A stretch of DNA of 63,390 nucleotides, filler included, from Collodictyon triciliatum (GCA_043381765.1; 12 parts of 12 records of this genome joined end to end with filler, not necessarily neighbours in it), one strand, 5' to 3'; positions 10,634 to 15,999 are shown, counted from the whole stretch's first letter. Notes: a model not told the origin generated them from the sequence alone. Translations and numbers: made by a program.

Positions 10634-10748
10634 NNNNNNNNNNNNNNNNNNNNNNNNNNNNNNNNNNNNNNNNNNNNTTAATTAATTAANNNNNNNNNNN
10701 NNNNNNNNNNNNNNNNNNNNNNNNNNNNNNNNNTTTCCAGATATAGGT

Positions 10749-11075
10749 ATGAGCGAATTTAAAAAAGAAATCAAGGTCAAGGGCCAGACTTACGTTGTCA
10801 AGATATCGCAAAGTAAAAATAAAAAATATACAGCCTGGCTTGCTGGACCCAAACAACCTCATCCCGAAATCAAGGGAGACTTTGTTCGAATGCTATCAAG
10901 CCCTGTCCACTTTGGAGACAAAAGATATAAACACTATAAAGACCAAATAGGTTATTATAAATCATTAGATACTAATGATTTAAAACAAAGAGAAAGGTAT
11001 AGAAAACGTCACGCAAAAGATAATATAGATGACCCATCTAGCGCAGGATTTTGGGCTTGGCATTATTTATGGTAG
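10749..11075 (+). CDS. Tlr6F-like protein conserved in PLVs, virophages and Tlr elements
   Basis: Motifs SKNKKY…VHFGDKRY.HYKD…D.KQRERYRKRH…DDPSSAGFWAWHYLW at the extreme C-terminus. Confidence 0.85.
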   Translation: MSEFKKEIKVKGQTYVVKISQSKNKKYTAWLAGPKQPHPEIKGDFVRMLSSPVHFGDKRYKHYKDQIGYYKSLDTNDLKQRERYRKRHAKDNIDDPSSAGFWAWHYLW

Positions 11076-11077
11076 CT

Positions 11078-11458
11078 TTATTTTTCATATTGCTCTTTAG
11101 TTTTTAATAAAAACGCAAGCACCAATAGCTTGATTTTTTTTAATAAATCTGTTTTCTGATTACACTCTAGATCCAAATCATCAATTTTAAAAAGCGAATA
11201 GAGTCCATTCCTCGTAGTTTCAAATAGTTTTTTGTTATCATAATAATATGCACGGCTTGCATATGCACACTGAATATCATACCAACTAACATTCCAATTA
11301 TATTTTTCGTAATCACCAATTATATTAATTTGATTTCGGTTTTTAAAAGTAACAACAGTATCTTCAATTTTTTCTGTTGTAAATTTAATTCCTAGGTCAC
11401 GATAATTAGTTATTGTAAAAACATAATCTCCAGTCTCGAATTCTTGAACACTTGTCAT
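11078..11458 (-). CDS. Hypothetical viral protein (126 aa)
   Basis: Intact ATG-initiated ORF converging on Tlr6F with a 2-bp gap; protein-like composition. Confidence 0.65.
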   Translation of the reverse strand: MTSVQEFETGDYVFTITNYRDLGIKFTTEKIEDTVVTFKNRNQINIIGDYEKYNWNVSWYDIQCAYASRAYYYDNKKLFETTRNGLYSLFKIDDLDLECNQKTDLLKKIKLLVLAFLLKTKEQYEK

Positions 11459-11530
11459 TTTGCAGGGGTTTTTAATAATGTTATCTATACAATTGTTTTT
11501 AAGTAGGTAATTACAAAAGTATTATTTAAA

Positions 11531-13486: not shown

Positions 13487-13506
13487 ATATTAACAAAGAA
13501 AAAAAA

Positions 13507-13866
13507 TTATGTCATTGGACGAAATCCGCGCCCTGTTGAGGCAAGCACGTACGCCTGGCCAAGGTCCTGAATTCCTGAGCCGATGGCCGACGCGTTTTGA
13601 AGTTTCCAGTCGGTTTTCCCCAGGGTCGACAACCCTTTCCCCAGGAAATTCGCGGCGGTGATTGTGCTCACCAGCGGGTTGGCAATTGTCTGAAATGCAG
13701 GTTTGATTCCTGTTCCTTGCAGCCCCAACTCAACTAGTCCGCCGCTAGCTCGATTCAAATCTGAGTAGGCTCTGTCCAATCGTTGCAGTTTGTTTAGTGC
13801 GTTGTCTGTGTGTCGCGTAAGGAATCGACCGACCCCCCTGGCTTGTTTTCTAACATCAACAATCAT
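13507..13866 (-). CDS. Small basic/Gly-rich amphipathic protein immediately upstream of MCP (119 aa)
   Basis: Intact ORF ending 20 bp before the MCP start, same strand; basic N-terminus and G/A/L-rich helices. Confidence 0.65.
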   Translation of the reverse strand: MIVDVRKQARGVGRFLTRHTDNALNKLQRLDRAYSDLNRASGGLVELGLQGTGIKPAFQTIANPLVSTITAANFLGKGLSTLGKTDWKLQNASAIGSGIQDLGQAYVLASTGRGFRPMT

Positions 13867-13899
13867 ACTCTAGGCAAGAAATTTTATATTAGTTATATT

Positions 13900-15999
13900 A
13901 TGGGAAGGCCTAGTAAAAAAAATTTGGTAAAGTACACGAAAGAGGCTTACGCTGCACATTTGCAAAATTTAGATTTTGATGAGCATATAAATATTTATTT
14001 TAATTTATTTGATATAGCCCGTGGATACGATATAAAAAAAGTAGATAATAGACCACAAATATTTTCTTTTGTTAAAGCTATGCAAAGAAAACAACCGGTA
14101 TTTGAAAATCCAGATACTAGAATAGCATATATTGTTGATCTTTATACAAAAATTGGTGTTAATTATATAAGAAAAGAATTAGATAGTTTTCAAAATTTGA
14201 GTGACGTATTGCGCAATAAAACTTCAGCAGATGTTGAAGATGTAGAAGAAGAACAAGAAGAGGATGATGACGAAGAAGCTCCAAGTGCAAGCCAAACTCC
14301 AAGTGCAAGCCAATCTCAACCCACTAAAGAAGAATTGATGGATGCAATAACGGTGGATGATGAAACCTTTCAAGAAATTGATCCAGAAAATTTTCAACAA
14401 CCAGTGTTTAATAACCCCCGTAGACAATCAATAGAAGAAATTACTAATATTAAACTTCAACAAACAAGTTCACCATTACCAGTTGAAGAAGAAGAACAAG
14501 AAAAAGAAGCAAGTTTTGACTTGGATACAACATTTGGTAGACTGGAACAGTATTTTTCACAATTTGATGATGAAATGGAAAGTGAAGAAGGACAAGCACA
14601 CTGGACAGAATTAGCATTAAAAATTATAAGTGAAGTAGGAAAAAAAAAGTCGCCTCTGGATATACCTTATTTGCAAAAAAGAGATGCTCGTGGGGGTCCT
14701 ATTAAAACAGTTATTTACACCGCTATGAATCTTGCACTGAAAGAATGGTTTAAGCACAGGGGGTTTTCTTATAAAGAAAACATACCTAAGGCATTTAATG
14801 ATCTAAAGGAATTTGAATTTATGCAATATTTAGACGATGAATTTGGAGAAGAAATAAGAGAATATTTGTATGCTTTTCAAATAGGCCAACCATACGAAGA
14901 TTTAGATGAAGATGAAATTTTATATAATATATGTTGGAACATCGCATACTACAGATATATTGCAGAACTTGAAAAAATAAAAGAACAAGAGCAGGCAGCA
15001 GAGGAGCGTCGAAGCCGGGCTGAATTATTTAATGCGAAAAGAGAAAAGCAATTGAAAGAGATTGAAGAAAGAAAAGAAAGAAAAAGACAAGAAGCTCTTG
15101 AAAAAAAAAGGCAGGCTGAAGAGGCCCTGGCAGAAAAATTAAAAAAAGGTGAGGAAGTAAGACGGTTGAAATTACAAAAAGAAATTCTCCAAGAATATCA
15201 AAAAAGATATTTACAAAAAATTCCGCCGGATGAAACTGACGAAACAGTTGTTCAAAATCAAGCACTTGTTACTAGAGTTGATGATGCCATTGTTTCACAA
15301 TTAATTCCAGTAATGAATCAAGAAGAAGAACAAATAATTATAAGAGACCTAGTACAAGCAACAAATCAAGGGGTACTTTTGGAAGTAGCAGACCAAGTAG
15401 CAAAGACAATGCAAATGAGTATAAAAGATTTTATAATAAAAAATTCTGACCAACAATCAGATGCTGGGTATGAAAAATTCTTTTATTCATTACCTCAATC
15501 TGACCAAGAAGTAGTAAGAGAAATAAGTGAATTTAGACAGGAAATATTTAATTTAAAACAAGCTAGAGCGCAAGTTGTTCAAACTGAAATCAGAGCTCTT
15601 GCAGTTGCAGATATTTTAAATGACGAATACAAGGCGCAGATTGCTCGTGAACAGAAAGACCTTGAATTAATTGTTAACGATTCACTTGATGCCAGACTTA
15701 ATGAATTGGATGACATAAATCTTTCTAACTTAATTGCAAAAAATATTGTTTCAATGGTCCAAGTAAATGCAAGTATTTCCCGGAGTATGTTAGAGCAGTC
15801 AATGGATGATTTATTTACTACGTTTGAACGCTCGCAAATATTCAACCAAGCAAATTATGTTCAAAATGCGCAGAGAAGTGCTAGTATTTTATTTGGATCA
15901 AAAGTTTTGGGTAGCGCATCAGTATTTGACCCAGACCAATCAACACTTACATATATAGGCTCGCGAATTCTAACTCCTGCTCAAAGTTTTGCAGAACAG
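13900..15999 (+). CDS. Large acidic/coiled-coil viral protein with N-terminal GRP (AT-hook-like) motif, 3' partial
   Basis: Likely start ATG 13900 (MGRPSKK), divergent from the 13866 ORF with a 33-bp gap; E/D tracts, PSASQ repeat, long E/K/R coiled coil. Confidence 0.75.

Follow-up and report, generated by a model that had tools for sequence, protein, structure and literature searches.

Contig C5340 of the Collodictyon triciliatum assembly (GCA_043381765.1) occupies positions 10734-15999 of the 63,390-nt stretch of DNA analysed here (the window), and is best explained as the capsid-side third of a Polinton-like virus (PLV) of ~15-17 kb integrated in the genome of this protist. It is a real endogenous PLV fragment and, taken as a capsid locus alone, an ordinary one. 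The wider finding concerns the family to which it belongs. The terminal inverted repeats (TIRs) of its members are capped by imperfect palindromes whose asymmetric centre is found in both orientations, and the same palindromes also occur solo, between short target-site duplications (TSDs). We suggest, with a probability of roughly 0.6, that the genome of these viruses is linear with hairpin ends, that it integrates with the hairpins unfolded, and that it is later deleted between the palindromes, leaving scars similar to the solo long terminal repeats (LTRs) of retroelements.

The window does not represent a continuous stretch of chromosome. It consists of contigs of ~5.3 kb, concatenated via N44-12 nt-N44 spacers, from a eukaryotic assembly of 75.4 Mb in 14,576 contigs; because the joins are artificial, the neighbours of C5340 in the window are uninformative as to its context. 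The first 121 bases of C5340 overlap contigs C7686 and C3298 with 100% identity, and the first 46 overlap C4264. Each of these three contigs runs on through a TIR of ~270 bp and a palindrome of 42-44 bp into non-viral DNA. These exact overlaps and the continuations into host DNA place one end of the C5340 subfamily, that of the Tlr6F-like gene, at no fewer than two integrated loci, and support the integration proposed in an earlier reading of the sequence (the first-pass annotation). The TIR that precedes the Tlr6F-like gene also precedes the integrase gene of contig C1861, with 98.6% identity over 139 bp.

Comparison of element ends revealed that the capping palindromes are 42-47 nt long, imperfect, and asymmetric at the centre. 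Exact-pattern searches, whose counts are lower bounds, located 64 of them, all of which were examined: 17 of family A, 28 of family B, 12 of family C (the C5340 subfamily) and 7 of family D. Backwards-pattern controls gave 0 matches. At 45 of the 64 places the palindrome lies at an element end, with a TIR on one side. Read from the outside in, the two orientations of the centre at these ends stand at 8:5 in family A, at 9:4 in B (with 2 ends of another centre variant), and at 4:4 in C1, the form of the C5340 subfamily (with 3 ends of the 42-nt C2 form). In family D, for which both orientations had been predicted before the search was made, the ratio is 5:1. One example from each family folds into a stem of 16-18 bp at -13 to -17 kcal/mol. 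The design of arms and asymmetric centre is retained across the families despite sequence change, and compensatory changes in the arms occur within family A. An independent freshwater metagenome contig (X1 record 4) carries the TIR and the whole palindrome, with a different flank at the same boundary. Other variants of the terminal palindrome, 42-44 nt long, lie outside this survey (L080:500-543, L131:470-511 and L056:1-26).

The remaining 19 of the 64 palindromes are solo, having a TIR on neither side, and lie between 5-bp direct repeats. The duplication is exact in 18 of them (16/17 for A and B taken together, 1/1 for C and 1/1 for D), and the remaining solo has a single mismatch; when the flanks of A/B solos were cross-paired as a control, a 5-bp match was seen in 6/272 combinations. 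Some solos carry point changes, as expected of ageing inserts. The two arms of a palindrome differ at position 4 in 5/17 A/B solos versus 0/28 A/B ends (Fisher p 0.005), and one further solo has an arm mismatch at position 3. In the TSD-matched end pair C2053/C4639 the position-4 variants are found on opposite ends. Since this position separates the two ends of that pair, the solos with hybrid arms look like recombinants between a left and a right end. No flank common to a solo and an assembled end was found among 18 A/B/C solos and 39 ends, except for one paralogous repeat at 86% identity.

Element ends can also be paired with each other through their duplications. Matching 5-bp TSDs were found in 8/238 same-family pairs versus 3/503 cross-family pairs (p 0.006), with no excess at 4 or 6 bp. 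Of these 11 compatible pairs, the 3 cross-family ones are taken as chance, and continuity of the flanks was checkable for 2 of the 8 same-family ones. In both of these, C3401/C4329 and C12219/C5660 (type C1), the two flanks map adjacent to one another on a single homologous gene, and for C3401/C4329 a homologous empty site contains the 5-mer once. The first-pass annotation had proposed a recent integration, which is plausible given the near-identical TIRs at 11 ends, with 1 solo among the 12 type-C palindromes.

The double-jelly-roll (DJR) capsid protein, the gene set, the TIR, the palindrome in both orientations, the 5-bp TSD and the solos are observed; from the integrated copies we infer the hairpin ends. 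The free genome would be linear, its ends being covalently closed, imperfectly paired hairpins that exist in flip and flop forms, as in poxviruses. Such ends would solve the problem of end replication without a protein-primed polymerase. The retroviral-type (rve) integrase would nick the base of each hairpin, and the 3' end so formed would be joined to host DNA at a stagger of 5 bp. Repair by the host may then unfold and copy the hairpin, so that each end would receive the whole palindrome in either orientation; centres in two orientations are thus a prediction of the hairpin-end model. A palindrome present at both ends would also be a direct repeat, and recombination or slippage between the two copies could remove the body of the virus. 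One palindrome would then remain between the original duplications, much as in a solo LTR. More hesitantly, at somewhat below even odds, it can be suggested that the unfolded hairpins act as 43-bp mini-LTRs, that their recombination releases a circle with one TIR-palindrome-TIR junction resolvable to a hairpin-ended genome, and that the 19 solos are fossils of such excisions.

A number of observations weigh against the hairpin proposal. No hairpin end, fold-back joint or TIR-palindrome-TIR junction was found in the three contig sets that were aligned to the terminus, and a terminal palindrome was present at 0/11 metagenome loci. Neither a resolvase nor a nicking enzyme was found. The C1 palindrome terminates in GA, whereas CA is usual for retroviral-type integrases, the arms are mismatched at position 2 in 3/28 A/B element ends, and exact-match patterns set only a floor to the palindrome counts. 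As regards C5340 itself, C7686, C3298 and C4264 all fit its left end, none being singled out as the carrier of its major capsid protein (MCP) gene. Its right end has no exactly overlapping contig in the assembly, and no contig among those examined holds both ends of one element. No free hairpin end was observed here, and stem-loop micro-inversion, a known process, could also flip the centre of a palindrome after insertion. The last two points count in favour of an ordinary, open-ended PLV, in which the palindromes serve as binding sites for the integrase or a replication protein, small inversions between the arms after insertion flip the centre, and the solos reflect unrelated host deletions. 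Host-driven deletion does account for the solos as well as virus excision does. This account is nevertheless unlikely. All four families show both orientations, among them C1, at 4:4 and with near-identical TIRs; the arm and centre design is kept across differing sequences, with compensatory changes in family A; and, in the part of a preprint on Halocafeteria considered here (10.64898/2026.07.28.741278), palindromes are found preferentially in elements that lack pPolB, the protein-primed polymerase.

The solos themselves might be something other than deletion scars. The palindromes all look integrase-like at either end and share a duplication of 5 bp, as would also be expected of an abortive integration, in which two hairpin ends are inserted and the body is lost at once, or of tiny palindromic elements that the integrase had inserted in trans. 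We regard such origins as improbable, in that the hybrid arms of 5/17 A/B solos require two different ends of one insertion. The hybrid arms exclude a single mobile 43-mer while staying compatible with abortive two-end integration; in addition, 43 bp would be short for the synapsis of two ends. It has also to be asked whether the solos are chimeras of assembly or amplification, C5340 being derived from a co-sequenced free virus and not from an integrated copy. The assembly is fragmented, with its 14,576 contigs, and up to 0.46 of words are shared with related DNA from freshwater, sediment and subsurface metagenomes. No RNA sample turned up among those that hold related sequence, an outcome without bearing on expression. 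Even so, we consider this highly improbable: a long k-mer is suggested by the 121-base overlaps between contigs, and solos would then require spanning reads; the 18 A/B/C solos and the 39 ends share no flank beyond the one paralogous repeat; some solos bear the point changes of ageing inserts; and C5340 overlaps the host-junction contigs exactly. Deletion between unfolded hairpins is the reading that we prefer.

The features of C5340, and one from another contig of the window, are as follows.

10734-15999, no strand: whole contig G000:C5340, the capsid-side part of an endogenous PLV, with spacers at 10634-10733 and 16000-16099
10734-10748, plus strand: innermost 15 bases of the type-C TIR, within the 100% overlaps with C7686, C3298 and C4264
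10749-11075, plus strand: Tlr6F-like gene, 108 aa, the first gene inside the TIR and in the same position in sister copies
11078-11458, minus strand: accessory open reading frame (ORF), 126 aa, a remote member of the ORF family occupying this slot in sister copies
11459-11740, no strand: non-coding block upstream of the 126-aa ORF, with inverted, iterated repeats of 9 bp
11752-11904, minus strand: ORF of 50 aa, hydrophobic at the N-terminus and bearing a Cys-Cys motif, overlooked in the first-pass annotation
11921-13486, minus strand: MCP, predicted double jelly roll, 521 aa, from structure prediction and fold searches
12137-12406, minus strand: hypervariable Gly/Ala-rich insertion, MCP residues 361-450, following helix 341-351 and preceding strand 456-459 of the second jelly roll
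13507-13866, minus strand: conserved gene of 119 aa, immediately upstream of the MCP gene in close sister copies
13900-15999, plus strand: large acidic, coiled-coil-rich ORF, N-terminal 700 aa, interrupted by the contig end
2515-2821, minus strand: frameshifted Tlr6F-like remnant of a different subtype (34% identity), on another contig and outside the C5340 element

The MCP sequence has no match in Pfam or the PDB, and its identity came from the fold alone. An AlphaFold (AF2) model built from 51 sequences reached a pLDDT of 83.3 and a pTM of 0.85. Foldseek matched the model to an iridovirus MCP (E 1.5e-15), and structural comparison gave Z 22.7 to the Faustovirus MCP (rmsd 3.0, 364 residues aligned), 22.5 to that of PBCV-1, 16.8 to that of Sputnik and 14.7 to that of mavirus; the first non-viral row scored 7.0. 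The two best BFVD matches are unnamed. The predicted fold thus supports the identification of the 521-aa protein as a DJR capsid protein, as first proposed, with its closest matches among the capsids of nucleocytoplasmic large DNA viruses (NCLDVs) and non-viral matches far lower. As regards the virophages, the MCPs of Sputnik and mavirus score below those of NCLDVs, there is no Pfam match, and no protease was seen among the scanned ORFs of sister copies. A long Gly/Ala-rich stretch noticed at the outset corresponds to residues 361-450, in which the Gly and Ala share is 0.31 versus 0.12-0.15 elsewhere, and coincides with the hypervariable part of the alignment. Both its composition and its character as a variable insertion in the second jelly roll hold; by analogy it may form the FG2 loop, presumably exposed on the surface.

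C5340 holds only a part of the gene set, and the first-pass annotation was right in placing the ATPase, polymerase and integrase outside the fragment. The remaining genes are found in sister copies. The gene order, assembled from several sister contigs, runs TIR, Tlr6F-like gene, accessory ORF, 50-aa ORF, MCP, 119-aa gene, large ORF, fibre-like gene, penton, ~115-aa gene, A32 ATPase, SF3 helicase, ~175-aa gene, rve integrase, TIR. Matches above cut-off to Pox_A32, rve and DUF5906 (the SF3 helicase) were obtained in sister contigs, with rve in C1334 and C1861; Pox_A32 is above cut-off in C1334, and a 98% identical copy of this ATPase is present in C1861, whose TIR is of the same type as that of C5340. 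The penton is a 254-aa gene of C3928, a contig with 87% nucleotide identity to C5340 over 2.1 kb. Its model (pLDDT 62.5) has a penton-like fold, scoring Z 12.8 against one chain of the PBCV-1 capsid (6ncl) and 9.8 against the mavirus penton. A DJR MCP, together with the penton, A32 ATPase, SF3 helicase and rve integrase of sister copies, most of which lack pPolB, is the basis on which C5340 is called an endogenous PLV, and the earlier assignment to this group is thereby supported.

Across the assembly there are 97 matches to the MCP, 42 to the ATPase, 57 to the SF3 helicase and 3 to pPolB, these being matches and not copy numbers. Of the proteins that had been suggested as search targets, the A32 ATPase, penton and integrase were thus all located, while pPolB was confined to its 3 matches, the replication gene of close relatives being the SF3 helicase. 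The pPolB match examined in context (C4366) belongs to a distant, low-GC element, and close sisters hold the SF3 helicase in that slot. Compared with Maverick-Polintons, the rve integrase and 5-bp TSD are present and a protein-primed PolB was not found, the half of C5340's own element that could hold it being unassembled. No maturation protease was seen among the scanned sister ORFs, which include no complete element and were not subjected to a dedicated search. C1334 spans ~14.5 kb, and two metagenome contigs with the same gene order measure 16.4 and 14.8 kb, against 15-30 kb for PLVs. Homologues number 42 proteins by word search and 1,755 cluster representatives by profile (E 0.001 or better), and a cluster look-up of 10 homologues returned no taxon and 'hypothetical protein' at most as a name. 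Neither the MCP nor its alignment picked out a relative in IMG/VR. The family B palindrome patterns gave 0 matches there, and the family C patterns 1, in unrelated coding sequence.

Other, more distant PLV groups are present in the same assembly (C962 = L028-L029, C786 = L058-L059, C4366 = L057, and L072-L073). They include MCPs of ~590 aa with 25-30% identity, in C962 together with an HNH gene, low-GC elements at 43-45%, and one element with pPolB. PLVs have also inserted into other PLVs: the genes disrupted by the end pairs C3401/C4329 and C12219/C5660 have homologues in the distant C962 group, and a type-C end lies inside the MCP gene of another element (L139, G000:C9664:1-420). Two dissimilar types of SF3 helicase, with ~25% identity between their helicase domains, accompany ATPases that are 91-98% identical (L044/L047/L075 versus L024/L042), which suggests swapping of the replication module. 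In a further TIR type, 120 bases are identical up to the start codon of the integrase in one element (L044:1-120, C1853) and of the Tlr6F-like gene in the other (L030 upstream of 8484, C1644); the palindrome scan picked up none at these loci. In this type the first gene at either end of an element thus seems to have its promoter within the TIR. A subsurface metagenome contig of 631 bases with a depth of ~2,900 (X3 record 16) matches 37 TIR bases (L138:330-366) and is possibly a very abundant relative.

The first-pass annotation had listed five genes in C5340, all tightly packed and intact. Their ORFs are indeed uninterrupted and intronless (10749-11075, 11078-11458, 11921-13486, 13507-13866 and that from 13900, the last cut by the contig end), and all five stand, but a sixth, of 50 aa, had been missed. 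Intactness does not set C5340 apart: 16/19 full-length MCP matches in the assembly are free of stops, so that intact genes are the rule in this PLV family. The 108-aa ORF is putatively Tlr6F-like, and its sole database match, to Pfam DUF5754, is below cut-off (E 0.009). Three of the products had been described as ORFans; they have no known family, yet homologues exist in sister copies. Neither the 126-aa nor the 119-aa protein matched a Pfam family, and their ESM Atlas neighbours were weak and unnamed. The 126-aa ORF matched a profile of 7 ORFs from the same slot at E 3e-08, the best of 500 shuffles reaching 0.012. The 50-aa ORF was present in 23/24 sister loci tested, at 62-100% identity, and probably encodes a small membrane or virion protein. 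In comparison with C8956, dN and dS are 0.011 and 0.257 for the 119-aa gene, and 0.08 and 0.36 for the MCP gene; dN well below dS indicates that both are under purifying selection, and the 119-aa product is probably a virion protein. A relative of the 700-aa ORF in C3928 is 88% identical and at least 1523 aa long, and is followed by the fibre-like gene and then the penton. The non-coding block at 11459-11740 may be a promoter or an origin. Blocks of the same kind, 85% identical, precede the SF3 helicase gene in C1861 and the helicase gene in C11243; L042:2924-3224 is one of these stretches.

The region at 1-2815 of the window had been taken for a decayed copy of the same element, and this we reject. 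It holds a single frameshifted Tlr6F-like remnant, 34% identical and of another subtype, the others of the six proteins have no match there, and 1726-2223 matches a cellular TMEM132 Ig domain. L1-like retrotransposon pieces are found at 2821-5268, starting at the break of the remnant and with an endonuclease domain at 4852-5268, and at 9300-10633. The contig at 53585-58835 contains an intronless 1165-aa ORF with P-loop NTPase and WD40-like regions (54742-58239) as well as a 172-aa ORF; by eye it looks bacterial and is a possible contaminant.

By what means PLVs that lack a protein-primed polymerase replicate their ends, and in what way integrated copies exit or are purged, are posed as open questions in the literature (PMC8547959, 10.64898/2026.07.28.741278), of which the parts considered here are the basis of this and the following comparisons. 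The palindromes hint at how such viruses copy themselves and disappear from chromosomes. Solos with intact target duplications, here 19 against 45 ends, provide a simple marker for the loss of integrated viruses. If the more hesitant suggestion of excision as a circle is correct, the 43-bp scars are a countable record of excision that could be used in any protist genome.

Known PLVs encode a DJR MCP, a penton, a packaging ATPase, a primase/helicase or pPolB, and an rve or tyrosine recombinase (YR) integrase, and are bounded by TIRs; those with rve have TSDs of 5-6 bp, and many copies assemble as separate short contigs (PMC4642659, PMC10120064, PMC12220804). PLVs are described as lacking a maturation protease (PMC4642659). 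The C5340 family shares with them the DJR MCP, penton, A32 ATPase, TIRs, rve integrase and 5-bp TSD. It differs in its terminal palindromes and solos: the text considered contains neither 'hairpin' nor 'palindrom' in PMC10120064, and neither 'hairpin' nor 'solo' in PMC12220804. The closest parallel is provided by the endogenous virophages and PLV subtype 4 of Halocafeteria seosinensis, in which palindromes at the TIR ends adjoin the TSDs and go together with rve integrases and with replication genes other than pPolB; a hairpin-primed mode of replication is proposed by the authors, who ask for tests (10.64898/2026.07.28.741278). Palindromes of the subtype 5 virophage in that study measure 52 nt versus 42-44 nt in the C5340 family. 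Its main text, in the part considered, does not use 'flip', 'orientation' or 'imperfect', and its section 7 describes no solo palindromes. The EMALE virophages of Cafeteria are inserted by rve with short TSDs, and the authors, asking how elements are lost, suggest TIR recombination or excision (PMC8547959). Solo repeats are mentioned there for Ngaro retrotransposons only, and 'hairpin' is absent from the text considered, whereas the C5340 family has solo palindromes. Papers on entomopoxvirus-PLV relationships, as far as they were covered, mention hairpins for the poxvirus only. No published account of flip-flop ends or solo palindromes in PLVs was found, in a search that was thin on subscription journals. 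Terminal palindromes in PLVs are thus already known (10.64898/2026.07.28.741278), while their flip-flop orientation and the solos appear to be new.

Terminal palindromes are also a feature of parvoviruses. The telomeres of vaccinia, a poxvirus, are flip-flop hairpins, AT-rich and imperfectly paired, that occur as terminal inverted repeats in two complementary forms (PMC8956199). The ends of poxviruses have been shown physically, whereas those of the C5340 family are deduced from integrated copies; poxviruses moreover encode a resolvase, and do not use an rve integrase to integrate. The likeness lies in an imperfect terminal palindrome that exists in two complementary forms, and to this the C5340 family adds solo palindromes that resemble the solo LTRs of retroelements.

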